From NCBI GenBank assembly GCA_036262075.1, contig DATAJO010000040.1:2807-66806 (forward strand): a stretch of DNA of 64,000 nucleotides, read 5' to 3'. The notes under the pieces were generated by a model, which had not been told where the DNA came from, did no database searches, and worked only from the letters and a program-made list of their open reading frames with translations. The stretch is from Candidatus Limnocylindria bacterium (GTDB taxonomy: Bacteria > Chloroflexota > Limnocylindria > QHBO01). A program made the translations under genes and the position numbers. Shown here piece after piece: positions 6,432 to 63,581 of this stretch (the first letter of the stretch is position 1; every line of letters starts with the position of its first letter).

Positions 6432-6434
6432 GTC

Positions 6435-42458: not shown

Positions 42459-43601
42459 ATGATGCGCGGCGGTGCAGAGGTTCACGCAACGCGACCACGA
42501 CTCGAGATGAACCGGGCGACCCGCGTGCGGCGCCTGGCGATTGCCGCCCTCATCGTCGTGCTCCTCGTCATGGTCGTCGCCATCCTGACGCTCAGACCCG
42601 CCCCCGGGCGCCAGCTCGGAACGCCGATGGACATCGAGGCTCGAGGGGACCTCATCCTCGCCACGCTGGCGGAGGGCCAGATCGTACGGGTCACCGTCTC
42701 GGGCGACGACGCCTCGATCGACACGCTGGCCGACGGCCTGCATTACCCGCGCGGTCTCGCCCTGACCGATGACACGGTCTACGTGGTCGAGCTCGGTGAG
42801 CTGCCGTGCGAGAACCCGATCCCCAGGTGCAAGGGTGAGCAGATGGGTGCGGGCAGCGTTGCGGAGGGAGAGCTCGAGATCCTCCGAGCATCGGCCGGAC
42901 GCGTGCTGGCCTACCCGAGGATGCCTGACGGAGGACTCGGCGAGCCGACGACCCTCGTCGACGGCCTCCCGTTCGTGAACGCGGACCACGGTCTGAACGA
43001 CCTCGACCTCGGTCCGGACGGGATGCTGTACCTGTCCATCGGCAACCTCGACCGCCTCGCCTGGCCCGACGTCGAGCCGATCCCTCCCACCGAGCTGCCG
43101 GCGACGCTCGGGGTGATCCTACGGATCGATCCGCGGAGCGGCGAGACGGCGACGTACGCCACGGGCCTTCGGAACGTCTACGGACTGTCGTTCGATGCCG
43201 CCGGCGCACTCTGGGGCGTCGACAACGACGGCCCCGGCAAGGGCGGATGGCGCTTCGAGGAGCTGATCAGGCTCGAAGAGGGGCTGGACTACGGATTCCC
43301 CGACGATGGCACCGTCGGCCCGTACGAGCGACGGACGGGCTTCGCCACCTGGATCATGCCGTCGGGTGCCGGTTCCAGCGGGTTGCTCGTCGAGGGCGAC
43401 GTCATCTTCAGTGGCGCCTGCGGATCGGTGCAGCGTCTCGGCCTCACGTCCTCGACCGGAGACGCGGCCCTCGTCGAGGCCAACCACCCCGGCTGCGTGA
43501 CCGCCATCGAGCGGCTCGACGACGGGCGGCTGCTGCTCGGAACCGTCTTCGGAGCGGCGTCCTTCGAGGTGGTCCGCGACGCCGATCTGTTCGGGCGGTG
43601 A
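42459..43601 (+). CDS. PQQ-dependent sugar dehydrogenase family protein (glucose/sorbosone dehydrogenase beta-propeller), membrane-anchored
   Basis: N-terminal TM anchor (RLAIAALIVVLLVMVVAIL). sGDH-like blocks LDLGPDGMLYLSIGN and GLRNVYGLSFDAAGALWGVDNDGPG. Confidence 0.75.
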   Translation: MMRGGAEVHATRPRLEMNRATRVRRLAIAALIVVLLVMVVAILTLRPAPGRQLGTPMDIEARGDLILATLAEGQIVRVTVSGDDASIDTLADGLHYPRGLALTDDTVYVVELGELPCENPIPRCKGEQMGAGSVAEGELEILRASAGRVLAYPRMPDGGLGEPTTLVDGLPFVNADHGLNDLDLGPDGMLYLSIGNLDRLAWPDVEPIPPTELPATLGVILRIDPRSGETATYATGLRNVYGLSFDAAGALWGVDNDGPGKGGWRFEELIRLEEGLDYGFPDDGTVGPYERRTGFATWIMPSGAGSSGLLVEGDVIFSGACGSVQRLGLTSSTGDAALVEANHPGCVTAIERLDDGRLLLGTVFGAASFEVVRDADLFGR

Positions 43602-43602
43602 C

Positions 43603-45891
43603 GTGAGCCGGCGAATCCCCTTGACCCTCGCGGCGGCGCTGGCCGCCCTGGCCTACGGCGTCCTGCTCGGCGGCACCGGCTTGGGAGAGCTGCATCCGGT
43701 GCTCCGCGTCATCAATATGGCCGTGGGCGGCTCGCTAGTGGCTGCCTACCTCGTCTTGGCGCCGCGCCGCATGGATCGGGTGGATGCCCTCACGCTCCTC
43801 GCGCTGCTCCTGTTCCTCGTTCCCGCGGTGCTCTCGGCGTATCCGCGCCAGTCCCTCGACTCGGCCCTCGGAGCCCTCGTCTTCGTCGCCGCGCTGTTCG
43901 TCGCGCGTCGAGTCACGGCCGGGGCGACCGGTCGACGCGCGACGATCCTCGTGGTGTGCGGCCTGTCTGCCGTTCTCGCCCTCCTCGCCGCGGCGCGGTG
44001 GCTGCCGGACACGATCGAATGGTGGCGGCTCACCAGCTGGACGGTGACGCCACCGCTGGACATGGACCGCAGCGGCATGCTCTGGGGCCACCGTCATGAC
44101 CTGGCGCTCCTCCCGATCATCACCGCCCCCGCGTGGTGGATCGGCGATCCGGGGCCCATCCGGCGGGCCGCCGGAGCGGTGTTCACCGCGCTCGCCCTGC
44201 TGCTCGTCGTCCTCGATGGCTCGAGGACGATCTGGCTGGCACTCGTGCTCGCCACCCTCGTCGTCGCCGTCCCGCGACTCGCCGCCCGCTGGCGACCGTC
44301 TCGCGCGACCCGAACGGTGGCGATCGCGTCCGTCGCAATGGGCGCCATCGGCATGACTGTCTCCGGGATCGGCTCCGCCGCGCTCGACCGACTGCTGACC
44401 ACGAACACCCTCGCGAGCCGGGCCGACCTGTGGAGCTCCGCGACCGACGTGTTCCTCGGCCGGCCGCTCACCGGCGCGGGCCCCGGGTCGTTTCCATGGC
44501 TCCTCCAGCGCACCGACTACTTCGATGCGAACAGCTGGGCGCCCCGACATCCCGACAGCCTTCCCTTCCAGGCGCTTCCCGAGCTCGGCCTGTTCGGCGT
44601 CGCCGCGATCCTCGTCGTCGCGGTGGCCATCGTGCCCGGGGTCTGGCGCGGACCATGGCAGGCGCGATGGGCCATCGGCGCCATGGCGTTCGCCAGCGTC
44701 GGGACGAACCCGTCGGAGTTCGCCTTCTTCGTCCTCCTCGCCATCGCCTGGGTGGCGATCGCCGCGCCGAGCATCCGAGCTTGGGAGCCGCTCGAGCGCC
44801 GGGACCTCGTCGGGGCCGTTCGATTCGCGTCACTCGGCGCGCTCCTCGTCGTCGGGATCGCCGCATCGTCCACCGCGGTGGCGGCGTTCGCGTATGCGGA
44901 TGGCCGCGCGGCCGTAGCGCGAGGGTCCTTGCCGGAGGCGCACGACGCGCTCGCGCATGCGCGATCGCTCGACCCCGGGATGGCGCTCTACGTGCGCCAA
45001 CAGGGAGCCGTGAGCCTCGTGGCCGGCGAGGTCGACCGGGCGGTCCGCGAGCTCGAGACGGCGGTCGCCATGAACCCCCAGGACGACCTCGCGTGGAGAT
45101 CGCTCGCTTTGGCCCGCCTCGCGATGGACGACCTGGACGGGGCCGCGGAGGCGAGCGCACGAGCGGTGGCGACCCAGCAGTCGGACCCGACGAACCTCCT
45201 CGTGCAGCTCCAGGTCGCCGATGCGGCGGGGGACGCGACCACGGCCACCGATGCGGCCACGGCATTGGTCCAGGCCTGGCCCTGGCTCATCGGTGCCGAC
45301 GCCTGGTCATCGGTCGCGCCGGCCGCCAACGACCAGCTGCTCCAGAGCGCGGCGCAGCGGTGGGGTGATGGCACGCCGACGCCCCAGTCGAACGCCCTGC
45401 ACGCACTATGGCTCGCGGTCCTCGCCGGCCGCGAGGACCTGCGGCCCGAGGCGATCGGCTCGAGCGGCTTGCCCGCATCGCTGGCCGAGACCTACGCCGC
45501 GGCATTGGTTTGCGAACCCGACGCGGAGCAGCGGCTGGACGACGCTTCTGCCAACGAACGACGGTTCGACGAGTACTGGGCGGCGTCCCTCCGGCTGTCG
45601 TCCCTGGCGGGAGCGCCGGACGAGACTGCTCGCCGCCTGCTCGAGATCATGTCGCCGGCCCCGTACCGCCCAGAGGCCGCGCAACGGGCGCTGGACCCGC
45701 TGGACGAGAACGGAGCATGGGGCCTGAGTGGCGACACCTGGGGGTATCGTCGCCCTCCGATGGACTGGCCAGCGGCTCCCGAACGCGCGACCCTGCCGCC
45801 GCCTGACGCCGCATGGATCAGGTGGACGCTCGACCCCGCCGGGGCGAACGGTGCAGCGGGCCTCTCGACCCTCGAGCAATGCTCGCCGTGA
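43603..45891 (+). CDS. O-antigen ligase (Wzy_C)-family polytopic membrane protein with C-terminal TPR-like repeats
   Basis: ~11 TM helices and a large periplasmic loop in the first ~430 aa. The C-terminal ~330 aa is helical-repeat (TPR-like: ...LAWRSLALARLAMDDLDGAAEASARAV...). Confidence 0.75.
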   Translation: MSRRIPLTLAAALAALAYGVLLGGTGLGELHPVLRVINMAVGGSLVAAYLVLAPRRMDRVDALTLLALLLFLVPAVLSAYPRQSLDSALGALVFVAALFVARRVTAGATGRRATILVVCGLSAVLALLAAARWLPDTIEWWRLTSWTVTPPLDMDRSGMLWGHRHDLALLPIITAPAWWIGDPGPIRRAAGAVFTALALLLVVLDGSRTIWLALVLATLVVAVPRLAARWRPSRATRTVAIASVAMGAIGMTVSGIGSAALDRLLTTNTLASRADLWSSATDVFLGRPLTGAGPGSFPWLLQRTDYFDANSWAPRHPDSLPFQALPELGLFGVAAILVVAVAIVPGVWRGPWQARWAIGAMAFASVGTNPSEFAFFVLLAIAWVAIAAPSIRAWEPLERRDLVGAVRFASLGALLVVGIAASSTAVAAFAYADGRAAVARGSLPEAHDALAHARSLDPGMALYVRQQGAVSLVAGEVDRAVRELETAVAMNPQDDLAWRSLALARLAMDDLDGAAEASARAVATQQSDPTNLLVQLQVADAAGDATTATDAATALVQAWPWLIGADAWSSVAPAANDQLLQSAAQRWGDGTPTPQSNALHALWLAVLAGREDLRPEAIGSSGLPASLAETYAAALVCEPDAEQRLDDASANERRFDEYWAASLRLSSLAGAPDETARRLLEIMSPAPYRPEAAQRALDPLDENGAWGLSGDTWGYRRPPMDWPAAPERATLPPPDAAWIRWTLDPAGANGAAGLSTLEQCSP

Positions 45892-46715
45892 CGGGCGGCA
45901 CGTGGCGTGCGGTTCGGCACGCGCTCGTCGTCGCCGGCCTCGCATACATAGCGCTCGTCTGGCTCCGCGTCGTGCCCTACGCGCTGCCGGTGCCCGAATA
46001 CGGTCCGGCGTTCGACGCGCGGGGCTTCTGGATCGCATGGGAAGGTGGCCTGTACGACATCCCGTGGCGGACGAACGAGGCGTACGTGTACTCGCCGGTG
46101 TTCGCGCAGGTCCTGTGGCCCCTCACCCTCCTGCCCTGGCCCGTCTTCATCGGGCTGTGGACGACTGCCGCGATCGCCTGCCTGTTCTGGATGCGCGTGC
46201 CGTGGATGCTCGCGTTTCCTGGCGTCATCGACGACATCCTGCGCGGGAACATCCACGTCTTCATGGCCGCGGCCATCGTCCTCGGGTTCAGGGCGTCGGC
46301 CGCGTGGGCCTTCCCGATCCTGACGAAGGTCACACCCGGGATCGGCCTGGCGTGGTATGCGGCACGGGCCGATTGGCGCCCGCTGGCGATCGCGCTGGCC
46401 GCCACGGCCGGGATCGCCGCGGTGTCGTTCGCGTTCAGCGCACCGCTGTGGATCGAGTGGATCGGGCTGCTCGCCGAGAACGCCCGCGAGACAGCACGAA
46501 TCCAGGTCATCCCGCTGCCGCTGGCCGTCCGTTTGCCCGTCGCGCTCGCGATCGTCCTCGTCGGCGCTCGAACCCAGCGCGCGTGGCTGCTCCCGATCGG
46601 CGTCATGGTCGGGCTGCCCAACGTCTGGACGAGCTCGACCGCACTCCTCGCGGCGGGCGCGTCGCTCTGGCGTCATCCCCCGCTCGTCCCTCGCGCAGCC
46701 GGGGCATCAAAATGA
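45879..46715 (+). CDS. GT87/DUF2029-like membrane glycosyltransferase (GT-C, polyprenyl-phosphate-sugar dependent), paralog a
   Basis: Polytopic membrane protein with the family Y-x-Y-[SP]-P loop motif (EAYVYSPVFAQ). ATG overlaps the end of the upstream gene. 4 such paralogs lie in the window. Confidence 0.7.
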   Translation: MLAVTGGTWRAVRHALVVAGLAYIALVWLRVVPYALPVPEYGPAFDARGFWIAWEGGLYDIPWRTNEAYVYSPVFAQVLWPLTLLPWPVFIGLWTTAAIACLFWMRVPWMLAFPGVIDDILRGNIHVFMAAAIVLGFRASAAWAFPILTKVTPGIGLAWYAARADWRPLAIALAATAGIAAVSFAFSAPLWIEWIGLLAENARETARIQVIPLPLAVRLPVALAIVLVGARTQRAWLLPIGVMVGLPNVWTSSTALLAAGASLWRHPPLVPRAAGASK

Positions 46716-48157
46716 TCGGCCGCTCCTTCCTCGCCATCGCGCCGGCGGCCCTCGCAGCGACGTTCGTCCTTCGGGGCTTCGTGGCCAATGCGGTGCCGCT
46801 CGACCTGCTGTGGCGCCCGCTGGCGGTGAGCGTCGCCATCGCGATCGTGATCCAGGTGATCCTGGTGCGAGCGTTCGGGTGGACGCGCGGGCATGTCTGG
46901 GCGTTCGTGGCCGTATCGGTCCTCACCGGCCTCTTCGTCCTCGCCGGCGCAGCATTGCTCGCGCTGACCCTGTTCAGCGTCGTGCGATCCGGTCCGGATC
47001 GCGAGTACCAGCTGACCGGGATACTCGCCGCGGCCGTGTCCGGCCTGCTCTTCGTGGCGGTGGTGTCCCAGGGTGTCGCCGCGGGGGCCTTCGATTGGCA
47101 GCCGATCCTCGTCACCGCCACACCGATGACGCTGGCCGATGACAGCCCGAGCCTTCACGTGCTGCTCCTCGACGGCTACCCGCGCCAGGACGTCCTCGAG
47201 GCGAACGGCGTCGACAACGAGCCGTTCCTCGCCGTGATGGAAGTGATGGGCTTCGACGTGTACCGCGACAGCCGATCGAACTACACGCGGACGCCGTTCT
47301 CGGTGCTGTCGATCCTGAGTGCCCGCCACATCGACGAGATGTCAGAGCTGTGGGCCGACGTGCCCTCGGGTGCGGCCGCCCAGCAGCGGCTCGTCGCGCG
47401 CGCCCTGCTCGCACCGCCGATGCTCGAATGGTTCCGCGCCGCCGGCTACGCCACCCGCGTCCTGCCTGCGACCGTCGCCCACGTTCCGCTGGGCGGCGCG
47501 GACGAGGCGCGAGGCGCGGGCACGGCCAACAACTTCGAGCTCGACCTCCTCCAGCGAACCCCGCTCGCCGCGCCCCTCGAGGTCATCGGCTTCGCGGCCG
47601 GCCAGCAGCGCACCCATATCGAACGGACGCTCGACACCTGGGCCGATCCGCCATCGGGCCGCACGTTCACCTTCGCGCACGTCATGTCGCCACACGCGCC
47701 CTTCGTGTTCCGATCCGATGGCTCCCCGGCTGACGCGCCGCCGTGCTATCCGGCGACCTGCTCGCTGTTCGATTCCGATGTCGGGGACCTGGGATGGCCG
47801 GCGGACGAGTACGTTCGTCGCTGGACCGGCCAGGTCGAGCACCTCAATACGCTCGTCCTGGCGGCCGTGGAGCGGCTGGTCGCGGAGGATCCCGGAGCAG
47901 TCGTCCTCGTCGTCTCGGACCACGGCGTGAGGGGACCAGCGGAGGACGTCCAGCACCGCAACCTCATCCTGGCGCGGGTGCCGGGCCATCGCGGCGTGCT
48001 CGGCACCTCGCCGACGCTCGTGAATGTCATCGTCGACGCGATGGCGCCGTGGGCCGAGGGGACCGTGCCCCGGGCGAGCGACATGCTGTATCGGAGCGGC
48101 GACGATCCGTGGCTCTTCGTGGAGCCGCTGCCATCTTCGGCAGCCGATGGTCCATGA
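46712..48157 (+). CDS. Membrane-anchored alkaline-phosphatase-superfamily (sulfatase/LtaS-like) protein, paralog A
   Basis: 4-5 N-terminal TM helices. Extracytoplasmic domain with the blocks LLLDGYPRQDVL ... FAHVMSPHAPFVF ... VLVVSDHG shared by all four paralogs (46712, 48447, 52429, 60662). ATGA coupling to the upstream GT87 gene. Confidence 0.7.
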   Translation: MIGRSFLAIAPAALAATFVLRGFVANAVPLDLLWRPLAVSVAIAIVIQVILVRAFGWTRGHVWAFVAVSVLTGLFVLAGAALLALTLFSVVRSGPDREYQLTGILAAAVSGLLFVAVVSQGVAAGAFDWQPILVTATPMTLADDSPSLHVLLLDGYPRQDVLEANGVDNEPFLAVMEVMGFDVYRDSRSNYTRTPFSVLSILSARHIDEMSELWADVPSGAAAQQRLVARALLAPPMLEWFRAAGYATRVLPATVAHVPLGGADEARGAGTANNFELDLLQRTPLAAPLEVIGFAAGQQRTHIERTLDTWADPPSGRTFTFAHVMSPHAPFVFRSDGSPADAPPCYPATCSLFDSDVGDLGWPADEYVRRWTGQVEHLNTLVLAAVERLVAEDPGAVVLVVSDHGVRGPAEDVQHRNLILARVPGHRGVLGTSPTLVNVIVDAMAPWAEGTVPRASDMLYRSGDDPWLFVEPLPSSAADGP

Positions 48158-48446
48158 CGCCTGATCCACAGGTCCCGTGGCGCGACGCCGCCCGGCTGCC
48201 ACACTGGCCGCCGATTGCCGAACCGAGCACCAACGATGACGTTCCTGTACATCGATCCGGGCGCCGGAAGCATGGTCGTCCAGGCCCTGCTGGCCGGTCT
48301 CCTGGCCGTCCCGTTCTTCTTCCGCACGCATGTGCGTCGCGCCGTCGACCGAGCCCGCGCGTGGCGTGGCCGGTCGAAGGACCGGGAATCCGACACCCCG
48401 CGCTGACGTTCGCCGTCCGGCGCTCCCGCGGACTCCAGTGACGGCG

Positions 48447-49997
48447 ATGCGCCCCGCGCTCGACGTTCCCGTGCACCCGATCCTCGTCGCCGCCACGATC
48501 GTCGTGACGGCGTGGCTCGACGCCGCCGTGTCGCCCTACGCCGCGACGCGGTCTCTGCTCGTGGCCTTTGGCCTCGCACTGGTCCTGACGGTCATCGCGT
48601 CGGCGGTCGCTCGGTCAGCCCAAGTGGGCGCCCTGGCCGCCACGGCCATCCTGCTCGCGCTCTGGAGTCGCGTGGCGCTCGAATTCGTGCTCGAGGTCGT
48701 CGGCGCGATGGGGTTCGTCATCGGGGTTGTGTGGCTGCTCCTCGTGGCCCTGCTGGTGATCCTCCTGGTCCGGCGGACGCGCGGTCGCTGGTCGACGGCG
48801 GCCGCCACGACCGCGCTCAACCGCGGATCGGCCCTGGTCCTGCTGGCGGCCCTGCTCCTCGGGATGGTCAACGGACGCCTCCCGTCGCTCCTCCCCGATT
48901 TCGCGCAGGGCGGGCCGATCTCGTCCCTCTACCTCGCCTCCGACGCCGCCGAGGACCGGCCCGACGTCTACGCGATCCTTCTCGATGGCTATCCCCGGGC
49001 CGACGTCCTCGACTACGCGTTCGGCATCGACAACTCCGCGTTCGTCGACGCGCTCACCGAGCGTGGGTTCACGGTCGCGTCGGAGTCACATTCCAACTAT
49101 CTCTGGACGCACGTCAGCCTGCCGACGACGCTGAACATGACATTCGCCGAGCAGATCCCCGAGATGCGAGCGGTAATCGACCTTCAGCGCCCTCGCCAGC
49201 CGACGTTGCGCCAACTGGTCTCGAACAGCGCCGCCTTCGGCGTGGCGCGGGATGCCGGCTACACGACCGTCGCGATCGGCTCGGGCTTCGAGGAGGTCGC
49301 TGCCCGGCAGGCCGACGTCTACCTCGACGGTGGCCAGCTCAACGAGTTCGAGATCAGCCTCCTGACCAGCACCTTCGTCGCCGACCTCATCCGTCCGTTC
49401 GCGCCCGACGTCGCCAGCGGCCAGCAGCGCGAACGGATCCGCCACAACCTCGCGGTGCTTCCGGACATCGCCGGAATCGGCGGAGCGCCCGTCTTCGTGT
49501 TTGCCCACGTCCCGTCGCCGCACCAGCCCGTCGTCTTCGGGCCCGACGGACAGCCGGTCGCGGAACCACTGAGGTCGAACTGGTTCGCGGACTCGCCGGG
49601 AGAGCGGGGCCAGGACCCCGAGGAGTTCCGCGAGCGGTATCGTGCCCAGCTGCCGGTCCTCAATGACCTCGTGCTGGATGCGATCGACGGCATCCTCGCC
49701 GCCTCCGACGAGCCGCCGATCATCGTGGTGTTCGCGGACCATGGTTCCGCGTCGGCCGTCGACTGGAACGAGACCGAACCGGCGGAGGCCGATCCGGCGC
49801 GCCTTCTCGAGCGGACCGGAACGCTGTTCGCGGCGTTCACCCCCGGCCGGACGGACGTCTTTCCCGACGACGTCTCGAACGTCGACATCTTCCGCCTGCT
49901 GTTCGACGCCTACCTGGGGACCGAGTACGGGCCTGCGACTCCGCCCGAGGGCGGCGGGCACGTGCAGCCCGTCGACGCATCGGTCCTCGACGACTGA
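48447..49997 (+). CDS. Membrane-anchored alkaline-phosphatase-superfamily protein, paralog B
   Basis: Blocks ILLDGYPRADVL ... FAHVPSPHQPVVF ... IVVFADHG; N-terminal TM region. Confidence 0.7.
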   Translation: MRPALDVPVHPILVAATIVVTAWLDAAVSPYAATRSLLVAFGLALVLTVIASAVARSAQVGALAATAILLALWSRVALEFVLEVVGAMGFVIGVVWLLLVALLVILLVRRTRGRWSTAAATTALNRGSALVLLAALLLGMVNGRLPSLLPDFAQGGPISSLYLASDAAEDRPDVYAILLDGYPRADVLDYAFGIDNSAFVDALTERGFTVASESHSNYLWTHVSLPTTLNMTFAEQIPEMRAVIDLQRPRQPTLRQLVSNSAAFGVARDAGYTTVAIGSGFEEVAARQADVYLDGGQLNEFEISLLTSTFVADLIRPFAPDVASGQQRERIRHNLAVLPDIAGIGGAPVFVFAHVPSPHQPVVFGPDGQPVAEPLRSNWFADSPGERGQDPEEFRERYRAQLPVLNDLVLDAIDGILAASDEPPIIVVFADHGSASAVDWNETEPAEADPARLLERTGTLFAAFTPGRTDVFPDDVSNVDIFRLLFDAYLGTEYGPATPPEGGGHVQPVDASVLDD

Positions 49998-50015
49998 CCT
50001 GGTCGCAGGAGTGAC

Positions 50016-51524
50016 CTAGTTGCAGGAGCGCAGGTACGCGACCTCGTTCTCGTCGCGGTAGACCTCGCACCAGCCCTCGTCCTCCGCCGGGCCCTTCGTG
50101 ATGGCGCGGTACGGCGGGAAGATCAGCGCGTCGACCTCGTATCGGTCCGCCACCTCCGCCCAGCCCGGGTCGGCGTCGCGGACGAGGCCGTATTCGGTGA
50201 GGATGGCGTCGTCGTACATGTCGTTCCGCCCGTCGACCATGACCCGGGCACCGGAGTCGTACATCTGGCCGATGACGTAGCCGCCCCAGCCGTACTCGGC
50301 GAGGATGCGGCCGCTCGGAACGCGTTCCTGGAGGAGCTCGACGCCCTGGACCGGAAGCTCGCGCTCGATGCTGGCCCGCACCGCTCCCATGAGGTCACGC
50401 GGCACGAAGATGATCACGCCCGCGACCGCGATGAGCGCTCCGAGCACCAGCTCCATGATGCGGCGCTGCCGGGCGATGCGCGGGCTCGGCTCGCGACGGT
50501 GCGGTCGCCAGTCCCGGAGCGCCGCGTCGATGCCCACGGCAAGTGCCGGTGCTCCGAGGATCGCCGCGACCGGACCGTTTCGGAGCGCGAAGAGGGTCAT
50601 CGCGATGCCCATGAATGCCAGCAGGCTCATCCACCACGGCACGCGCCACCGGCCGAACACCGCGACAGCCGCCATGTAGATCACGAGCGGCCAGTGGGCC
50701 GGATCGTGGAAATCGGGCGACTGCCACTCGGTGATGTTCGCCGCGCCCCAGTCGCCGGCGTCGACGTAGCGTAGGGGATAGAGCAGAAGCCCCGGGCCCT
50801 CGGGCGTGAGGACCGTTCCGGCCATCGCCAGCGGAACCATGGCAAGCGCCCATCCCTTCGCCTGCGCCATCGGCGTCATGCCGAAGACGGTCATGACCGC
50901 GTACGCCGCGAGGACGACGAGGCCGACCACCCACAGCCCGTGAAGGTTCGCCCAGAGGACGAAGAGGGGAACGAGGGCCAGGGTCCAGCGCCGTCGGTCG
51001 GGCCGCAGGTGGACGAGGCCCGCGACGAGCAGGGCGAACATCACCCAGGACAGGGCTTGGGGCCGGATCGTCGCGTAGGGGATGATCAGGAGGGCCGTCA
51101 GCGCGGTCGCACCGGCGACCGCGACGGTCCGGAGCCCGAGCCGATGCAGCGCCACCGCGAGGATCGCCACGGCAACGACCGGTACGGCCGCGAAGATCAG
51201 GACGGCGCCCAGATAGCCGATGCCGTCGACGAGCACGGCAATGATCAGCTCACCCAGCCACTCGTGGAGCGTCCACGGCTGGCCGCCCCACGTGAAGCTG
51301 AACGGGTCGGTGCGCGGGAAATCCCCGGCCGCGATCAGGCGGCCCGTTTGGATGTGCCAGTAGAAGTCGGAGTCCCACGGTCCCTTGGACAGGAACGCCG
51401 CATACAGCAGGGCGCCGAGGACGACCACGTGAATGGCGATCGGCGACGGGAGCCAGCGGTGCAGGTCCGGGGTGGTGCGTGAACGCATCGGGGGCGAGTC
51501 TACGGTGTGAAGACGGCGCGACAA
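50016..51524 (-). CDS. Large polytopic membrane protein (~13 TM), putative GT-C-like glycosyltransferase
   Basis: 502-aa hydrophobic ORF with a soluble C-terminal ~120-aa domain; no precise family call. Convergent with paralog B, divergent from GT87 paralog b. Confidence 0.6.
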   Translation of the reverse strand: MSRRLHTVDSPPMRSRTTPDLHRWLPSPIAIHVVVLGALLYAAFLSKGPWDSDFYWHIQTGRLIAAGDFPRTDPFSFTWGGQPWTLHEWLGELIIAVLVDGIGYLGAVLIFAAVPVVAVAILAVALHRLGLRTVAVAGATALTALLIIPYATIRPQALSWVMFALLVAGLVHLRPDRRRWTLALVPLFVLWANLHGLWVVGLVVLAAYAVMTVFGMTPMAQAKGWALAMVPLAMAGTVLTPEGPGLLLYPLRYVDAGDWGAANITEWQSPDFHDPAHWPLVIYMAAVAVFGRWRVPWWMSLLAFMGIAMTLFALRNGPVAAILGAPALAVGIDAALRDWRPHRREPSPRIARQRRIMELVLGALIAVAGVIIFVPRDLMGAVRASIERELPVQGVELLQERVPSGRILAEYGWGGYVIGQMYDSGARVMVDGRNDMYDDAILTEYGLVRDADPGWAEVADRYEVDALIFPPYRAITKGPAEDEGWCEVYRDENEVAYLRSCN

Positions 51525-51595
51525 GGCACCGGTGGTCCTATCACCCGCCGTTCGTCCCGTTGAGCGGGGAGTGACGAGCGGTACCCTGCGCCCCG

Positions 51596-52432
51596 ATGGA
51601 TGCGGCCACCCTTCGCTCGTCCGCGCTCGACCGATGGCGGCCGCTGCTGCCCGCCGTCTACTGGGTCGTCACGGCCATCGGCGCGGCCTGGTGCTTCCTC
51701 ATCGTCTTCGACGTCGTGCCGTACGGACTGTGCGGGAACACCGGCACCGTGCCGTGCGACGCCTACAGCTACTGGGCCGTCGACGCGACCCCGTACACCT
51801 GGGAGACGAACCTCGAATATCGCTACTCGCCGGCGTTCCTGTGGGCGATCGCACCGCTGACCTGGATGCCGTTCGGGGCGTTTCTCGCGGCATGGACGGC
51901 GCTCCACGTCGCCGCCGCGATCTGGCTGCGCGTCGGCTGGATCCTCATCATCCCGGCGCTGAACGAGGATGTCCTGCGGGGCAACATCAGCCTGTTCCTG
52001 GCGGTCGCCGCCGTCCTTGCCATTCGGCAGTCCGGCGCGTGGTGGGCCCCCGTGCTCCTCACCAAGGTCACGCCCGGCGTCGGGATCGTGTGGCACGCGG
52101 TGCGTCGAGAATGGAGGTCGCTCGCCGGTGCGGTCGGGGTGACGGCGGCGATCGTGGCCATCGGCTTCGTCCTGGACGCCGGCCTATGGCGCGCGTGGAT
52201 CGACACGCTGGCGAATGCCGACGCCACGTACGAGGTGGGTCACCCGCTCGGGCCGCCCCTCCTCCGGGTGGGGATCGCCGCCGTGGTGGTCGGGTTCGGG
52301 GCGTGGACCAGCCGTGCGTGGCTCGTGCCCGTCGCGATGTTCGTCGCGGTCCCCGGCCTGTGGTGGTTCAACTGGGCGCTGCTCGCGGCGATCCCCCGGC
52401 TCCTCGAGCGTGGGCCGGCACCGCAGTCGTGA
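51596..52432 (+). CDS. GT87/DUF2029-like membrane glycosyltransferase, paralog b
   Basis: Motif NLEYRYSPAFLW; polytopic. Confidence 0.7.
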   Translation: MDAATLRSSALDRWRPLLPAVYWVVTAIGAAWCFLIVFDVVPYGLCGNTGTVPCDAYSYWAVDATPYTWETNLEYRYSPAFLWAIAPLTWMPFGAFLAAWTALHVAAAIWLRVGWILIIPALNEDVLRGNISLFLAVAAVLAIRQSGAWWAPVLLTKVTPGVGIVWHAVRREWRSLAGAVGVTAAIVAIGFVLDAGLWRAWIDTLANADATYEVGHPLGPPLLRVGIAAVVVGFGAWTSRAWLVPVAMFVAVPGLWWFNWALLAAIPRLLERGPAPQS

Positions 52433-53706
52433 AGGTCGTGCGGAATCGCGTCATTCCCGCGGCGGCGGCCTCGTTCCTGACGTGGTCGGCCGTCGTCATG
52501 CTCGTCGCGACCACGATCGCGGCACCGCTCGACGTCCTCGGGCGACCGATGCTCATTGGCCTGGTCGTGGCGGCAGCCATCTCGGTCGCATCGATCCCCC
52601 TCGGAGCGTTCGGTCGCTACGGGGCGGTCGCGATGACGATCCTGTTCCTCCTGCCTGCGCTGTGGTGGCTGGTCGCGGCGCTCGGGCTCGTCGAGGTCGC
52701 TGCCGCGCTCGCGGCCCGTTGGCGGCGGGCCGAGCGATGGCCGATCGGGCGCGCGTCGGTCCTCCTCGTGGGACTGCTGTGCGTGGTGAGCGCCGTCCAG
52801 CTGGCACCGCGCTCCCTCGACTACGTCGGCGAACGGCCGCCGGCCATCGCGGACGCCGACGTCCCGGTCTACCTGCTCCTTGTGGACGGCTACCCGCGAA
52901 TCGACACGCTCCAGGGCCTGGGGATCGAGAACGACGCTTTCGTCCATGCGCTCGAGGAGCGCGGGTTCGACCACTATCCGGATGCGACGTCGCTGCACCA
53001 GTGGACGCATCGGACGCTGGATGCCATGGCCGCGACGGACCCGCGGGCGGTGCCCGACGAGGGAGGAAGCGCTGCCGATCGCGAGGAGGTCCGCGAACGC
53101 CTTGGCATGCCGGAGAACTTCGTCGTGATCGATCCGCCTGCCAGCCATGTCATGATGCGGGGCGGTCCGACCATCAGCGCCGGAGGCATGAACGACTTCG
53201 AGGCGCACCTCATCGGTCGATCGGTCGTGACCTGGATCGCTCCCGAGCTCGCGCGCGATCTCGTCGAGGCCGGGCTTCGGCGCCACCTGGAGGGAACGTT
53301 GGACCTCGTGGCCCGGACGCCGTCAAGACAGCTCTTCGCCCACCTCCTCGCGCCCCATCCGCCATTCCTCTACGCCGACGGCTTGTCAACGTGCTGGCCA
53401 GCCTGCGGCACGTTCGAAGTGGACGCGGAGAAGCTCGGCATGAGCCGTGACGCCTGGGCCGCCCATATGGATCGCCACCTGGACGGGGTCAACCGCCGGC
53501 TGTTGGACGCGGTCGATCGGGTCCTCGACGCCCATCCCGATGCGGTCATCGTCCTGTTCGGCGACCACGGTGCGCGCTACGGAGGCGATCGGGACGAGCC
53601 CCACCGAACGTTCCTGGCGGCGCGGACGCCGGGCGCTCCGCACCTCTTCGATGCCGAACCGCATCCGCACGCCATCCTTTCCGTCCTCGCGGAGTTTCTC
53701 CGGTGA
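52429..53706 (+). CDS. Membrane-anchored alkaline-phosphatase-superfamily protein, paralog C
   Basis: Blocks LLVDGYPRIDTL ... LAPHPPFLY ... IVLFGDHG. GTG overlaps the upstream stop (GTGA). Confidence 0.7.
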   Translation: MKVVRNRVIPAAAASFLTWSAVVMLVATTIAAPLDVLGRPMLIGLVVAAAISVASIPLGAFGRYGAVAMTILFLLPALWWLVAALGLVEVAAALAARWRRAERWPIGRASVLLVGLLCVVSAVQLAPRSLDYVGERPPAIADADVPVYLLLVDGYPRIDTLQGLGIENDAFVHALEERGFDHYPDATSLHQWTHRTLDAMAATDPRAVPDEGGSAADREEVRERLGMPENFVVIDPPASHVMMRGGPTISAGGMNDFEAHLIGRSVVTWIAPELARDLVEAGLRRHLEGTLDLVARTPSRQLFAHLLAPHPPFLYADGLSTCWPACGTFEVDAEKLGMSRDAWAAHMDRHLDGVNRRLLDAVDRVLDAHPDAVIVLFGDHGARYGGDRDEPHRTFLAARTPGAPHLFDAEPHPHAILSVLAEFLR

Positions 53707-54728
53707 GACTCCGCGCTGGCCATCTCGTGCTCCTCACGGCCGCGGCGTTCCTGCTCGCCGACGCGATCATCGTGTGGATCGGCGCCCGGGCGGACTTCGG
53801 CTTCGACTTCACGTGCTGCTACCAGCAGGCCGCCGCGCGGGCCGTCGAGGACCCGGCATCGCTGTACGAGTGGTCCGACACGTACACGTTCCGCTACACA
53901 CCGCTGGGCGCGCTCGTCTTCGCCCCCCTGGTCCCGCTGTCCGAGTCCGCGGCCACGTTGGCGTGGCTCGTGGCGAAGCTGGCGATCCTCGCGATCGCCG
54001 CGGCATGGTTCTCCAACCGATGGACCGGCACGCAACGCTGGCTTGCGTTCGCCGCCGTGGTCGCCTTCCCGCCGCTCGTCCACGACCTCGTCATCGGCAA
54101 CGTGAGCACGCTCACATTCCTCGTCCTCCTCGCGCTCGCCCGATGGACCGATGGGCGCGGTGGCATCGCCCTCGGGCTGCTGCTCATCCTCATGCCCAAG
54201 CCGCACCTCCTTCCGATCCTCGCCTACCTCGCGCTGCGGCGGCGGCGTGACGCGATCTCCGCCACGGCCACCGCGGTGGCAGGGGCCGTCGTCGGCCTCG
54301 CGCTGTTCGGTACCGGGCCGTGGCTGGAATTCGTCGGCACCCTTCGCGAGCCGCTCGAGCGCACGTTCACGGCCAATGTCGGCTTCAGCGGACTCCTCGG
54401 TCCCGCCGGCGTCGTCGTCGGCGTCGTGGTCGCCGTCGCCATCTTCGCCGCCGCGGTCGTCATCGGCGGGACGCGTGGCTACGGGCTCGCGATCCTGTCC
54501 GGCATCGCGGCCGGCCCGTACACGTTCATCCACTACCTGGCGGGGACGCTCGTCGCCGCCGAACCCGTGCTCAGGACCCGTCCACGGTGGCTCGCCCCGT
54601 TCCCGTGGCTCCTCGTCTTCTTCCCGCTGATCCCGGTCTGGCTCACCGCGCTGGCGGCGGTCGTGGCACGCTCCCCGGAGCCTGCTGGCGGCGAGGAAGC
54701 GGAGCGGCCAGCAGCAGCGCGAGGTTGA
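53703..54728 (+). CDS. GT87/DUF2029-like membrane glycosyltransferase, paralog c
   Basis: Motif TYTFRYTPLGALVF. GTG overlaps the upstream stop (GTGA). Confidence 0.65.
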   Translation: MRLRAGHLVLLTAAAFLLADAIIVWIGARADFGFDFTCCYQQAAARAVEDPASLYEWSDTYTFRYTPLGALVFAPLVPLSESAATLAWLVAKLAILAIAAAWFSNRWTGTQRWLAFAAVVAFPPLVHDLVIGNVSTLTFLVLLALARWTDGRGGIALGLLLILMPKPHLLPILAYLALRRRRDAISATATAVAGAVVGLALFGTGPWLEFVGTLREPLERTFTANVGFSGLLGPAGVVVGVVVAVAIFAAAVVIGGTRGYGLAILSGIAAGPYTFIHYLAGTLVAAEPVLRTRPRWLAPFPWLLVFFPLIPVWLTALAAVVARSPEPAGGEEAERPAAARG

Positions 54729-55599
54729 CGAGCAGCACGCGCGGCAGCGCCACGAGCTGGAGCAGCGTGGCGAGCAGCCAGCCGTAGCGCGTGCGCGCCC
54801 ACCAGATGGCGGCAACCAGGACGGCAACCGTCCCGACGATCCAGGGAACGACGCCGAGGGCGCGCAGCGACATGCCCGGGATCGTCTCGGTGGCCACCGG
54901 ATCGGTCAGGTAGAAGCGGAGCATCGGCTCCAGCCACGGGAGCTGCACGAGCGCGAGCACGGCCATCGCCACGGCGTACCAGCCCAGCGGCACCCAGTCG
55001 CGCCGCCCGACGTACCACGCCAGCGCGAGCGCCGGGTGGAGCTTGAGCATGGTCGCCAGCGCGAGCGCCGGTCCTCCCCATGCGCCGATGAACGGCACGA
55101 CCGCGAGCAGCGCCACGACGATGGCCTGGGCGTTGCCGTTCAGAAGCTGCTGCCCCCACGCGCCGATGAGGAGGGCGGCCGGGAGGAGCCCGGCCGGTCC
55201 GGCAACGCGCCACGCGACGACGATCGGGACGGCCGTCGCGACCGCCAGGATGGCGTACCAGAGCGGCGGCCAGCCGAGGACCGGGATGGCCATCGCGAGG
55301 AGCGGCGGGTACCGGTAGCGGTAGTCCTCCGGCACCGCTCCGGCGGACGCGTAGGGATCGCCGGCCGTCCACAGGTCGTGCGCGGCCCGGTTGTACGTGT
55401 CGAGATCCGCGCCGATCGACGTGGTGTCGGCCAGGTACCACGCGCCCGCCAGTCCGAGCGCGAGGTAGACCGCGACGAGGAGCACCCAGCGCGTGTTCAC
55501 GGGCCGCACGGTAGCAGTCGGGCCGTAGGCCGCCGCTGGTACCTCCGGGTGGGCGGAAGGCGTCGGGGCTGCCGGTAGACTGCCCGGCGATGCATCCAC
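54643..55599 (-). CDS. GT87/DUF2029-like membrane glycosyltransferase, paralog d
   Basis: Motif PEDYRYRYPPLLAM (the canonical GT87 Y-R-Y-P-P). The start probably lies downstream of 55599 (GTG at 55500 or 55509) because 55590-55599 would overlap the divergent start of the next gene. Confidence 0.65.
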   Translation of the reverse strand: MDASPGSLPAAPTPSAHPEVPAAAYGPTATVRPVNTRWVLLVAVYLALGLAGAWYLADTTSIGADLDTYNRAAHDLWTAGDPYASAGAVPEDYRYRYPPLLAMAIPVLGWPPLWYAILAVATAVPIVVAWRVAGPAGLLPAALLIGAWGQQLLNGNAQAIVVALLAVVPFIGAWGGPALALATMLKLHPALALAWYVGRRDWVPLGWYAVAMAVLALVQLPWLEPMLRFYLTDPVATETIPGMSLRALGVVPWIVGTVAVLVAAIWWARTRYGWLLATLLQLVALPRVLLVNLALLLAAPLPRRQQAPGSVPRPPPAR

Positions 55600-57203
55600 G
55601 CATGCGCGACCTGGTCGCGCTCGCCATCGGGGCCATCGTGGCCCGAACGCTGGCAGTCGCCCTCGTCCCGTGGCCGCCGTTCACCGATCCGGCGTACTAC
55701 TCCCTCGTGGCGCAGCGGCTGGCCGAGGGCCACGGCTTCACGATCCCGGTGCTCTACAGCTTCCTCGAGGTCGGCAGCCGGATCCCGGATCCGGCGACGC
55801 TGCCGGTGGCGAGCAACGGGCACTGGATGCCGCTCACCTCGATCGTCGCGGCGGGATCGATGGCGCTGTTCGGACCGACCTACGTGGCGGGCACGATCCC
55901 GCTCGTCGTCCTGTCGGCCGCGCTCGCGCCGTTCACGTACTGGCTGGCGCTCGAGCTTGGCGCTTCGCGCGGCGCGGCCATCGCCGCCGGCATCCTCGCC
56001 ATCTTCGCCGGCCCGCTGCTGATCATGTACCCGACGACCGACAACTTCGCCGTCTTCGGGGTGGCCGGGGCCGGAAGCCTGTACGCGTCGACCCGCGCGA
56101 TCGGCGCATCGCGTCCCGGGCCGTGGCTCGTGCTCGCCGGCGCCCTGGCCGGGCTCGCCACGCTGGCACGCATCGACGGCGTTCTGCTGACGATCGCGGT
56201 CGCGACGGCCTGGTTCGTCCGCCGAGGGTGGAGCCCGTGGCGACCCGCGGTCACCGGCGGGGCGAGCGTCGCCTGGGGCGCCGCGTCGGCGCTGGCCTTC
56301 CTCGCCGTCATCGCGCCGTGGGCGGCTCGGAACCTGGCGACGTACGGCAGCCCGCTCCCGTCGGCCGGCGGCCACACGCTCTGGATCCGGACGTACAACG
56401 AGCAGTTCTCAATCGGCCACGAGGTGAGCCTCGGCACGTACCTCGACTGGGGCCTCCCGAATATCGTCGGGTCCAAGCTGACTGCCGCCGGCGAGCTGAT
56501 CGGCCGGACCGGCGTGCTCCTGGGCGGGGTGTTCCTCCTGTTCTTCGCCGCCGGGCTGTGGATGCGGCGACGAGAGCCGCGCCTCGCGCCGTTCGCGGTC
56601 TACTTCGCCGTCATGTTCGTCGCCATGGCGGGGATCTTCACGTTCCACGCCCCGAGAGGCGCCTTCTACCATTCAGCGCCGGCCTGGCTCCCCTGGGCCT
56701 TCGCGATCGGCACGATGGCCGTGGCGCCGACCGCGACGGCGGCGGGCCGGCTGTGGCCGTTCCTGCGGCGACCGGCGACGCATCGGTTCCTGCTGACGGC
56801 CGGCGTGGCGGGAGCGATCGTCCTGTCGGTCGTCGGGTCGGCGATCCTTCACGCCCAGTGGAGCCGCTCGCGCGACCGAGACGAGCAGGCGGCCGCGTAC
56901 CTGCTCGCCAACGCGGAGCGGACCGACGTCGTGATGGGCAGCGATCCGGCGAGCATCTTTCCGCTGACGCAGAACCCGGGCGTGGCGGCACCGTTCGATC
57001 CGTACCCGGTCGTCGAGGACGTCGTCGAGGCGTACGGCGTGGACTGGGTCGTCGTGTACCGCCCGGGACCGGGCGAGACGGATCCGCTCGGGCTCTGGGA
57101 CGGCGCCGCGGCGACCGACAGCGAGGGCAACCACCCGGCGTTCCTGCCCGCCGAGCCCGCGTTCGAGGGCGATGACCTGAGGATCTTCCGTGTCACGCGC
57201 TGA
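55590..57203 (+). CDS. GT-C-fold membrane glycosyltransferase (ArnT/PMT-like, GT39/GT83-type)
   Basis: N-terminal first-loop motif WPPFTDPAYYSLVAQRLAEGHGF, ~11 TM helices and a C-terminal periplasmic domain. Confidence 0.65.
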   Translation: MHPRMRDLVALAIGAIVARTLAVALVPWPPFTDPAYYSLVAQRLAEGHGFTIPVLYSFLEVGSRIPDPATLPVASNGHWMPLTSIVAAGSMALFGPTYVAGTIPLVVLSAALAPFTYWLALELGASRGAAIAAGILAIFAGPLLIMYPTTDNFAVFGVAGAGSLYASTRAIGASRPGPWLVLAGALAGLATLARIDGVLLTIAVATAWFVRRGWSPWRPAVTGGASVAWGAASALAFLAVIAPWAARNLATYGSPLPSAGGHTLWIRTYNEQFSIGHEVSLGTYLDWGLPNIVGSKLTAAGELIGRTGVLLGGVFLLFFAAGLWMRRREPRLAPFAVYFAVMFVAMAGIFTFHAPRGAFYHSAPAWLPWAFAIGTMAVAPTATAAGRLWPFLRRPATHRFLLTAGVAGAIVLSVVGSAILHAQWSRSRDRDEQAAAYLLANAERTDVVMGSDPASIFPLTQNPGVAAPFDPYPVVEDVVEAYGVDWVVVYRPGPGETDPLGLWDGAAATDSEGNHPAFLPAEPAFEGDDLRIFRVTR

Positions 57204-58689: not shown

Positions 58690-58809
58690 TGCGCACGAAG
58701 GGGCGGTAGTACTTCCGGCGCCCAAAGTACTGTTGCTCGTATGCATCGCGCGCCGACAGCATGGCGCCGGCGTCCGGTACTAGCCCGGACCCGGTACTCA
58801 AGGGGAACC
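58690..58809 (+). promoter_or_regulatory. Lower-GC intergenic region with inverted repeat AGTACTT-N10-AAGTACT and direct repeats CCGGTACT x2 upstream of the DegS/DegU-like operon
   Basis: Read directly: gtAGTACTTccggcgcccaAAGTACTg ... CCGGTACTagcccggacCCGGTACTcaaGGGGAaccATG. SD AAGGGGA lies before the ATG at 58810. Confidence 0.35.
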
Positions 58810-59839: not shown

Positions 59840-60598
59840 ATGGTGGACACCCAGAACGAGACCCAGGAGGAGACGCGGACCGATGAGCGTCGCCGTGGCG
59901 GCGATCGCCGGGCCACCGGCAAGACGCGCGTCGTCATCGTCGACGGCCACACGCTCTTCCGGCGCGGCGTCCGGAACATCCTCGAGCTCGAGAACGACAT
60001 CGAGGTCGTGGGCGAGGCCGGCAGCGGGCGCGAGGCGCTCGCCACCGTCGAGGAGCTGACGCCGGACGTCGTCCTCATGGACCTCGGCCTGCCGGCTCCG
60101 AACGGCATCGAGACCACCCAGCGCCTGAAGCGCGAGCTGCCGCACACCGGCGTCATCGTGCTCGCCAGCAACGACGACGAGGACCAGCTGTTCGACGCCA
60201 TCAAGGCGGGCGCGGCTGCCTACGTCCTCAAGGACATCGATCCCACCGACCTCATCGCCATCATCCGGCGCGTGCGGTCGGGCGAGTACCTCATCAACGA
60301 CAAGGTCTTCGCCAAGCCCGCCGTCGCCAGCCGCGTGCTCAAGGAGTTCCGCGAGCTGGCTGTCTACGGCGCCGAGGCGCAGCCCATCTTCGCGCCGCTT
60401 TCGCCGCGCGAGGTCGAGATCCTGGACAACATCGCCCAGGGCATGACGAACAAGCAGGTGGCCTACGCCCTCTCGATCAGCGAGCAGACGGTGAAGAACC
60501 ACATGTCGTCGATCCTGCGCAAGCTGTCGGTCAACGACCGCACCCAGGCCGTCGTGTACGCGATGCGCCAGGGCTGGATCAAGATCCCGGAGGACTGA
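59840..60598 (+). CDS. NarL/FixJ (LuxR)-family response regulator (DegU-like)
   Basis: REC domain (VVIVDGHTLFRRG...DVVLMDLGLPAPNG). C-terminal LuxR-type HTH (LSPREVEILDNIAQGMTNKQVAYALSISEQTVKNHMSSILRKL). SD GGAGGAG lies before the ATG. Confidence 0.92.
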   Translation: MVDTQNETQEETRTDERRRGGDRRATGKTRVVIVDGHTLFRRGVRNILELENDIEVVGEAGSGREALATVEELTPDVVLMDLGLPAPNGIETTQRLKRELPHTGVIVLASNDDEDQLFDAIKAGAAAYVLKDIDPTDLIAIIRRVRSGEYLINDKVFAKPAVASRVLKEFRELAVYGAEAQPIFAPLSPREVEILDNIAQGMTNKQVAYALSISEQTVKNHMSSILRKLSVNDRTQAVVYAMRQGWIKIPED

Positions 60599-60661
60599 GC
60601 CACGACCTCCTTCCGTACCTCGAGAGGCCGCGGTGCTAACCGCGGCTCTCTCATTTCCTGA

Positions 60662-62101: not shown

Positions 62102-62120
62102 CGACGGGCAGCGGAAGGTA

Positions 62121-63561: not shown

Positions 63562-63581
63562 TCGACGCCTGAACCCAAGCG

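Follow-up and report, generated by a model that had tools for sequence, protein, structure and literature searches.

What might an uncultivated soil bacterium build with a locus that carries two kinds of membrane protein gene four times each, namely genes of GT87-like glycosyltransferases and genes of membrane-anchored proteins of the alkaline phosphatase (AP) superfamily? Such a locus lies around positions 43603-57203 of a 64,000-nucleotide stretch of DNA (hereafter the window) from a Candidatus Limnocylindria bacterium, and an initial annotation, made from the sequence alone, had described it as iterated pairs of these genes that might represent a new polymer-assembly system. Considering that the products encoded between 42459 and 58686 are all polytopic or membrane-anchored, that their known relatives act on the outer membrane face with lipid-linked donors, and that Pfam annotation of this region revealed no nucleotide-sugar glycosyltransferase (GT), flippase or initiating transferase, we favour extracytoplasmic late-stage assembly or decoration: the locus is probably, with considerable room for doubt, a lineage-specific, content-variable Limnocylindria-type cluster that assembles or decorates a surface glycoconjugate wholly on the outer membrane face. 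The gene set, the family-level folds of its products, their conserved catalytic residues, and the synteny and variability of the locus are matters of observation.

Raw lists of open reading frames (ORFs) were crowded with spurious frames because of the high GC content of the window (~70 %), and genes were called from third-position GC and frame switches (GC3 frame plot) in addition to ORF reading (Table 1). The protein of g3 (46712-48157) is identical to the NCBI entry "hypothetical protein VHR55_12870" from a Candidatus Limnocylindria bacterium metagenome-assembled genome (MAG) of the phylum Chloroflexota, and the genes of the locus are real. All four paralogous AP-like proteins that had been announced exist, but only three of them lie inside 43603-57203, the fourth (APd, g14) being located beyond a two-component system, where it forms its own transcription unit past a terminator-like hairpin in DNA with a GC content of 0.65. 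The start of g4 (APb) could alternatively be GTG 48438; its orthologues in two related loci (L001 and L003, 56-60 % identical) align from residues 7-10 of the start at 48447. The motifs LLLDGYPR, FAHVMSPHAPF and DHG pointed out earlier are found in the AP-like proteins, and g4 and g14 share every invariant residue with APa.

A profile built from the four AP-like paralogs, searched against 50 %-identity clusters with 1.84 billion representatives, gave full-length matches to 12,930 clusters at E<=1e-3 and to 4,411 at E<=1e-30. The N-terminal polytopic domain is conserved family-wide, with matches running from profile positions ~5-10 onward. Among 60 diverse members, D154, T194, H323, P327, H328, P330, D403 and H404 are invariant, and a pair of Cys residues co-occurs, each being present in 46 of the 60, which suggests an extracytoplasmic disulfide. 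An AlphaFold2 model of g3 was obtained with high scores (predicted local distance difference test (pLDDT) 92.9, predicted template modelling score (pTM) 0.91) and shows a predicted N-terminal helical bundle (residues 2-123) and an alpha/beta domain (148-472), with D154 after strand 148-153, T194 at the N-terminus of helix 194-203 and D403-H404 directly after strand 397-402. The predicted architecture, an N-terminal multi-helix domain followed by an AP-fold catalytic domain, is that of LtaS/EptA-type membrane phosphotransferases, and the residues of a Thr nucleophile and an Asp/Asp-His metal site are conserved in all 60 members, T194 heading a helix in the model. Top Foldseek matches of the model were full-length MCR-1 (9nww) and EptA (5fgn) over ~560 columns, with template modelling scores (TM-scores) of ~0.4. 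Searches against PDB sequences detected nothing significant for the AP-like proteins (best E-values 0.054 for EptC and 0.006 for a sulfatase), and the possibility raised at the outset that they simply belong to a well-characterised family was not borne out at threshold in Pfam, NCBIfam or PDB sequence searches.

Whether the nucleophile is Thr/Ser or formylglycine had been left as a question, and the answer is an invariant Thr, the proteins being membrane-anchored AP-superfamily enzymes. Formylglycine sulfatases are excluded because Thr occupies the nucleophile position (within S-N-Y-x-x-T) and no C/S-x-P-x-R motif is found there. A non-catalytic, PbgA-like role was also ruled out, as all catalytic residues are invariant. 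The combination of a Thr nucleophile and an N-terminal membrane domain fits membrane-anchored phospho-alcohol transferases, which to our knowledge always have such a domain and either Thr or Ser as the nucleophile. Judging by sequence identity, the four AP-like paralogs are anciently diverged: they are 29-34 % identical to one another, whereas identity to their respective orthologues is 49-60 %, by which recent tandem duplication of these genes could be ruled out. Repeating the homologue searches with alignments yielded practically nothing beyond the close orthologues already found, and little information on taxonomy.

The GT87 family (Pfam PF09594, DUF2029) has a gathering cut-off of 25 bits, which is exceeded by g2, g6 and g8. 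Four GT87-type proteins had been proposed, and the fourth, g9, belongs to them by profile-profile comparison only: it has no Pfam match and its BLASTP comparison with g8 is meaningless (E=6.9), but when aligned g9 orthologues were compared in hhalign with ten aligned GT87-like proteins, the two alignments matched with a probability of 99.95 % (E 1.4e-38, 246 columns). The GT87 assignment, singled out earlier as a possible point of failure, thus holds in profile searches, and NCBIfam gave no name for any GT87-like or AP-like protein of the locus. The Y-x-Y-[ST]-P loop that had been ascribed to each of these proteins is present, but g8 has FRYTP. At 275-341 aa the proteins are short for the family. 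They are 28-42 % identical to one another, whereas orthologues in related loci are 60-78 % identical, and the duplications are therefore old; orthologues of g2 were found in L001 and L003 (73-78 % identical) and those of g6 in L001, L002, L003 and L021. The best PDB sequence match of the GT87-like profile was GPI mannosyltransferase 1, a weak match (E 0.035) in the D..Y / YRY-P region. After helix 1, an Asp stands shortly ahead of a conserved aromatic residue in every paralog, and D32 is invariant among g9 orthologues; these would be candidate counterparts of PimE D58, the catalytic Asp in the first extracytoplasmic loop of the GT-C fold. The genes g8 (plus strand) and g9 (minus strand) are convergent, and their 3' ends overlap by 86 nt (54643-54728).

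How closely are the two kinds of gene tied to each other? The chaining of the plus-strand genes by ATGA or GTGA overlaps could be read in the sequence at four junctions of 4 nt, namely g1/g2 (GTGA), g2/g3 (ATGA), g6/g7 (GTGA) and g7/g8 (GTGA). The stoichiometric co-expression that had been derived from them does not follow from the overlaps alone, which show operon membership and are routine in these compact, high-GC loci. Likewise, a GT87-AP pair was said to be repeated three times, but there are two coupled junctions of a GT87-like gene with a following AP-like gene, not three; APb follows APa across a 289-nt gap that holds a conserved micro-ORF. By the motif LDGYPRAD, 79 metagenome loci were retrieved, in which 129 AP flanks with at least 900 nt were assessable. 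The immediate neighbour of the AP-like gene was GT87-like on 13 of the 129 flanks, another AP-like gene on 28 and something else on 88, so AP-AP tandems are the commoner arrangement. A GT87-like gene was present in 11 of the 25 metagenome loci of at least 6 kb, many of which share one lineage because orthologues of the amine oxidase, g1 and g5 recur in them. No GT87 neighbour was found for a distant AP-like member (P0186). The neighbourhood comparison suggested by the initial annotation shows that GT87-like and AP-like genes do recur jointly in other contigs; their association is real, far above chance for the few GT87 genes per genome, and facultative. The notion of a strict iterated pair has to be given up, considering that the copy numbers of AP and GT87 genes vary independently, that AP-AP tandems are more frequent and that solitary AP genes exist.

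Comparison with related loci reveals the same mixture of conservation and change. A scan of the genome collection, with patterns specific to APa orthologues, yielded two loci only; L001 and L002 are ENA assemblies and L003 is an "uncultured Chloroflexia" MAG. The locus is syntenic in L001, L002, L003 and L021, and gene order is kept in the first three of these. APc (g7) is missing between GT87b and GT87c in L001, L003 and L021 and present in L002, and is thus dispensable in relatives, while L003 holds extra AP copies. L011 has the same upstream flank as the window (genes for a DUF5317-MFS protein, where MFS denotes major facilitator superfamily, and for PCMT, YggT, GT4 and amine oxidase) and the same downstream flank (HisKA_3 kinase and regulator), and the interior between them, only ~8.6 kb long, contains a single AP-like gene, three GT87-like matches, of which two are strong and one is marginal, and other unknown genes. 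L010 shares the upstream HD-domain, DUF5317-MFS and PCMT genes, has no GT87-like gene, and further carries a PIG-L-family deacetylase, two PMT_2-like genes and sugar-nucleotide genes. Within this locus (L010, 6250-13099), three AP-like genes stand in tandem, and the first of them is overlapped at its start by an Alg6/Alg8-like GT-C gene (31.9 bits, above cut-off), which takes the place of the GT87-like genes. Three more loci were reached through distant members of the AP-like family: L007 has an AP gene followed by two GT87-like genes, and in L008 a 280-aa GT87 gene lies directly upstream of an AP gene, both within a Wzx/GT4/DegT/epimerase polysaccharide cluster, with a gene for an SLH protein nearby. 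The third (L009, 1012-20739) has five AP-like genes and two that are GT87-like, and beside them stand a phosphoenolpyruvate (PEP)-mutase/cytidylyltransferase fusion, a phosphonopyruvate-decarboxylase-like gene, an iron-containing alcohol dehydrogenase (Fe-ADH) gene and a TagF-like gene, so that the glycan of its host might carry phosphonate. With its conserved flanks and changing interior, the region has the character of a variable surface-polysaccharide locus, and, as for the earlier concern that it might be syntenic with a known lipoteichoic acid (LTA) or arabinomannan cluster, no such synteny was found.

The conserved micro-ORF in the gap between APa and APb is absent from the initial annotation. 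It encodes a single hydrophobic helix and the motif LYIDPGAGS, has no meaningful Pfam match, and recurs in 14 other loci, each time with an AP-like gene directly downstream, in five of them only a few nucleotides away. Its product is a candidate small subunit of the AP-like enzyme, and such a micro-protein partner would be a testable small-protein subunit.

The remaining proteins of the cluster fall into families with varying clarity. The O-antigen-ligase-like protein with a tetratricopeptide repeat (TPR) tail that had been recognised at the head of the locus was confirmed, g1 passing the gathering score of Pfam Wzy_C, a superfamily that spans O-antigen ligases, polymerases and O-oligosaccharyltransferases, while its TPR_16, TPR_2 and TPR_19 matches in Pfam are all sub-threshold. 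Orthologues of g1 were found in L001, L003, L015 and L032. In L001 (2322-5894) a single ORF without stops, called as a gene of 1025 aa, spans the Wzy_C-TPR and GT87a parts, which in the window occupy separate frames with the GTGA overlap; the L001 version is a genuine fusion or else the result of an indel in the assembly. Upstream of g1 lies g0b, which has a single hydrophobic segment (residues 26-44) and a stop 1 nt before the start of g1 and probably opens the plus-strand unit; it varies among relatives, an orthologue having been found in L021 only. Two to three further GT-C-like proteins had also been counted, and here the evidence is weak: g10 and g11 have PMT_2 matches under the Pfam gathering score, and g5 lacks matches altogether. 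The g10 orthologue in L001 bears an unmarked PMT_2 match on record, g11 resembles g10 in BLASTP (E 7e-4), and the start of g11 is ambiguous (GTG 57190 or 57211). The polytopic protein g5 has a DSD motif after helix 1 and a soluble C-terminal domain; it has no match in Pfam, NCBIfam or PDB sequence searches and no similarity to g10 or g11 in hhalign (probability 1 %). It is 72-75 % identical to its orthologues in L001, L002 and L003 and has matches in 13 metagenome loci, with invariant blocks that include KGPWDSD.YWH, WANLHG, EWQSPDFH and VDGRNDMY.

Table 1. Coordinates and family evidence of the genes in and around the locus (positions in the window; scores in bits are those of Pfam matches)
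Gene	Product	Position	Strand	Evidence
	GT4	27798-29144
g0b	GSDH-like beta-propeller, N-terminal hydrophobic anchor	42459-43601	+	GSDH 32.6 bits
g1	Wzy_C polytopic protein, C-terminal TPR region	43603-45891	+	Wzy_C 58.3 bits, cut-off 31.7
g2	GT87a, 275 aa	45888-46715	+	GT87 28.4 bits
g3	APa, membrane-anchored AP-superfamily protein, 481 aa	46712-48157	+	Sulfatase 18.4 bits, sub-threshold
	micro-ORF between APa and APb, 56 aa, MTFLYIDPGAGSM..., LYIDPGAGS motif, one hydrophobic helix	48236-48406	+
g4	APb, AP-like, 516 aa	48447-49997	+	no Pfam match; 29 % identical to APa
g5	polytopic membrane protein, no assigned family	50016-51488	-	conserved
g6	GT87b, 278 aa	51596-52432	+	GT87 40.5 bits
g7	APc, AP-like, 425 aa	52429-53706	+	alignment of paralogs; no Pfam match
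g8	GT87c, 341 aa	53703-54728	+	GT87 67.9 bits
g9	GT87d, divergent, 285 aa, YRYRYPP	54643-55500	-	hhalign; no Pfam match
g10	PMT_2-like polytopic protein, 537 aa	55590-57203	+	PMT_2 22.8 bits, below 26.1
g11	PMT_2-like polytopic protein, 498 aa	57190-58686	+	PMT_2 20.1 bits, below 26.1
g12	HisKA_3 histidine kinase	58741-59829	+	HisKA_3 55.8 bits, HATPase_c 53.3 bits
g13	response regulator, LuxR/GerE output domain	59840-60598	+	Response_reg 93 bits, GerE 79 bits
g14	APd, AP-like, 479 aa	60662-62101	+	Sulfatase 22.3 bits, sub-threshold; 34 % identical to APa
g15	secreted protein, C-terminal SLH repeats	62410-63561	+	SLH 34.7 bits

The two-component system and the SLH-domain protein described downstream of the locus were both matched by Pfam, as a HisKA_3 kinase with a LuxR-type regulator and as SLH repeats, respectively. 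The kinase g12 is DegS-like in architecture and has no hydrophobic or transmembrane (TM) segment, and, as part of the downstream flank of the locus, it is conserved in L011 and L066; AAGGAGGAG precedes the ATG at 59840 of g13. A promoter and terminator scan of the locus was uninformative except for one terminator-like hairpin 3' of the regulator gene (60626-60647), which parts g13 from the lower-GC stretch of APd and the SLH protein; there (60001-64000) the GC content falls from ~0.71-0.73 to ~0.65. The SLH protein g15 has a signal-like N-terminus and three repeat-like segments and is a possible wall-polymer-binding surface protein.

Annotation covers all of the window but a few stretches within ~23.5-26.4 kb and 30-35 kb, and the annotated remainder is unrelated to the locus (DNA methylase, regulators, HD-GYP proteins, branched-chain amino-acid ABC transporter, dehydrogenases), with the GT4 gene of Table 1 as the sole exception. 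A C-5 cytosine DNA methylase gene occupies the window start (82-1401), and the interval 2001-8000 has a lower GC content (0.64-0.66) and contains a large BTAD/TPR regulator and an HD-GYP-type protein. Genes for an HD-domain protein, DUF5317-MFS fusion, PCMT, YggT, GT4 and amine oxidase (6797-10172, 26433-29144 and 41145-42422) are collinear in L010 and L011 with very different spacing, which helps to delimit the variable locus.

Going by the behaviour of the families concerned, the topology, donors, acceptors, order of steps and product of the cluster may be pictured as follows. The four short GT87-like proteins would draw on polyprenyl-phosphate-sugar donors and add the sugars to a glycan that is either still growing or already complete, and the two PMT_2-like proteins would probably transfer sugars from polyprenyl-phosphate-sugars likewise. 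In the AP-like proteins, about five N-terminal helices would carry an extracytoplasmic AP-fold domain with the Thr nucleophile and the Asp/Asp-His metal site. With a membrane lipid as donor, these enzymes may pass its phospho-alcohol head group, such as glycerol phosphate or phosphoethanolamine, via a phospho-Thr intermediate onto the glycan, as is the case with GacH, LtaS, EptA and BcsG. The LYIDPGAGS micro-protein might act as an accessory subunit of some AP paralogs, the Wzy_C-TPR protein might ligate or polymerise the product, and the resulting polymer may anchor SLH proteins.

Several observations weigh against this explanation. A GT87-like neighbour occurs on only the 13 of 129 AP flanks mentioned above, and solitary AP genes adjoin PEP carboxykinase (PEPCK), glutamyl-tRNA synthetase (GluRS), MFS or methyltransferase genes. 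The AP-like proteins stay below curated thresholds (Sulfatase 18.4 bits for g3 and 22.3 for g14 against 25; no match for g4 and g7 or in NCBIfam), and the fold search cannot tell transferases from hydrolases, sulfatases scoring level with EptC and LtaS. We infer the outside position of the AP domain, because hydropathy gives APa four, not five, clear TM segments. The AlphaFold2 model of g8, for which the alignment consisted of the four window paralogs, is unusable (pLDDT 48, pTM 0.35), and it is therefore profiles only that back the GT-C fold of the short GT87-like proteins. In the annotated parts of the window, no polyprenyl-phosphate-sugar synthase was seen.

Other explanations have to be weighed against the assembly or decoration of a surface glycoconjugate. 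The one that survives best, which we nevertheless regard as unlikely, is a protein glycosylation and phospho-form system, in which the Wzy_C-TPR protein would be a PglL/TfpM-type O-oligosaccharyltransferase, the PMT_2-like and GT87-like proteins would glycosylate secreted or S-layer (SLH) proteins, and the AP-like proteins would add phosphoethanolamine or phosphocholine, as Neisseria PptA does to proteins. The Wzy_C domain is common to O-oligosaccharyltransferases and g1 weakly matches the O-linking oligosaccharyltransferase TfpM of NCBIfam; however, this match has 31 bits against a cut-off of 600, and Wzy_C fits ligases and polymerases equally. PMT_2 is a family of the protein-mannosyltransferase type, but the PMT_2 matches are sub-threshold. 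An SLH protein is encoded 1.8 kb downstream and another near the gene pair of L008, yet the operon is linked to no acceptor protein, and the SLH gene of the window belongs to a separate, lower-GC unit past the terminator-like hairpin.

Polymerisation of the LTA type appears quite improbable. One or more AP-like paralogs would then be LtaS-type polymerases that build a polyol-phosphate chain on a glycolipid, and the GT-C proteins would only glycosylate this chain, on the model of LtaS/YfhO. The architecture of N-terminal TM domain and ectodomain is alike in both, but the AP-like proteins have no sequence-level match to LtaS, and their first metal ligand is the Asp of the DGYPR motif, whereas it is Glu in LtaS and EptA. 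A partnership of GT-C enzymes with LtaS has been reviewed (PMC8035078), but diverged paralogs with a variable copy number would suit decorating enzymes better than a single processive polymerase. Finally, there is very little to commend the idea that the AP-like proteins work as hydrolases tethered to the membrane (phosphodiesterases, phosphonate or sulfate esterases) for nutrient scavenging or polymer trimming and that their adjacency to GT87-like genes is mechanistically meaningless, as the housekeeping neighbours of solitary AP genes and the phosphonate biosynthesis genes of L009 might indicate, considering the invariant Thr at the nucleophile position without a C/S-x-P-x-R motif, the polytopic N-terminal domain kept across the family, and the 4-nt coupling and recurring adjacency to GT87-like genes, which speak against chance.

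Limnocylindria-type Chloroflexota are abundant in soil and freshwater and uncultivated, and as a first entry to their envelope polymers the locus provides a concrete gene set, conserved yet variable, for a surface glycoconjugate. The AP-like family, with its 4,411 clusters, escapes Pfam and NCBIfam thresholds and is annotated as "hypothetical". If its members are phospho-alcohol transferases, chemistry of the GacH/LtaS/Ept type would reach a further phylum as well as a new sequence clade, and might account for surface charge in a monoderm without classical teichoic acids.

The pairing had been put forward as an undescribed pathway module. We found no description in the literature linking GT87/DUF2029 with such AP-like proteins, and a 2026 paper on Limnocylindria does not mention envelope genes, so the claim holds for these families, but the logic is known from GacL/GacH, from LtaS with YfhO/GtlB and from glycosylphosphatidylinositol (GPI) assembly. 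What is new here is a large unannotated enzyme family, together with an unusual multiplicity and variability of the locus, in an unstudied phylum. A close parallel in logic is the group A carbohydrate, in which GacL, a GT-C enzyme, attaches the GlcNAc side chain (PMC8035078) and GacH, shown experimentally to be the transferase, then adds glycerol phosphate to it (bioRxiv 10.1101/337519). In GacL/GacH (SccH in S. mutans), a GT-C enzyme adds a sugar from undecaprenyl-phosphate-sugar outside the membrane and a membrane-anchored AP-superfamily enzyme adds the glycerol phosphate, both being encoded in one polysaccharide cluster; the likeness of our locus to it lies in gene adjacency and fold resemblance. 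However, GacL is of the PMT_2 type rather than GT87-like, the gac cluster has one GT-C and one AP enzyme where the locus has four of each, it encodes cytoplasmic steps (GacI, GacJ and the flippase GacK) that the locus does not, and APa showed no similarity to GacH at the sequence level.

EptA, EptC and MCR-1 share with the AP-like proteins the N-terminal helical membrane domain and the C-terminal AP-fold ectodomain, as well as the Thr nucleophile and the DH pair at the metal site, but differ in the first metal ligand, and the resemblance amounts to TM-scores of ~0.4 and sequence E-values of 0.05 or worse. The acceptors of Ept enzymes are lipid A, lipooligosaccharide (LOS) and flagellar proteins of diderms, which a Chloroflexota monoderm lacks. 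LtaS is a processive polymerase, and the genes of LtaS and YfhO/GtlB are usually unlinked; in the locus the GT-C and AP genes are linked, and its proteins have no sequence-level match to that system. In the late assembly of mycobacterial phosphatidylinositol mannosides (PIM), lipomannan (LM) and lipoarabinomannan (LAM), the GT87-family GT-C enzymes PimE and MptC use polyprenyl-phosphate-mannose outside the membrane (PMC3123699; PMC3485146). A further point of likeness is the presence of several GT87 paralogs, which act in series there, but the locus has no synteny to the PIM/LM/LAM clusters. Its GT87-like proteins (~275-341 aa) are also shorter than PimE (~430 aa), and we know of no AP-superfamily partner in LM/LAM synthesis.

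In eukaryotic GPI assembly, the GT-C mannosyltransferases PIG-M, PIG-V and PIG-B alternate with the AP-superfamily ethanolamine-phosphate transferases PIG-N, PIG-O and PIG-G on one lipid-linked glycan at the non-cytoplasmic face. This is an analogy without significant homology, GPI mannosyltransferase 1 being the top, weak PDB match of the GT87-like profile, and the window lacks the glucosaminyl-phosphatidylinositol (PI-GlcN) steps, whereas L010, a related locus, encodes a PIG-L-family deacetylase. In the AP-like proteins, the motif DG-x-(P)-R-A-D may be reminiscent of the DGLRAD motif of PIG-N. Speculatively, and with the chances rather against it, the AP-like proteins might define a large and undescribed DGYPR/Thr clade of extracytoplasmic phosphotransferases, often with an LYIDPGAGS partner, and might form a bacterial GPI-like assembly line with the minimal GT87-like enzymes, in which each GT87/AP unit would install one phospho-alcohol-substituted hexose on a glycan linked to a lipid or to the wall, and gain or loss of units would give these abundant soil Chloroflexota a serotype-like diversity of surfaces.

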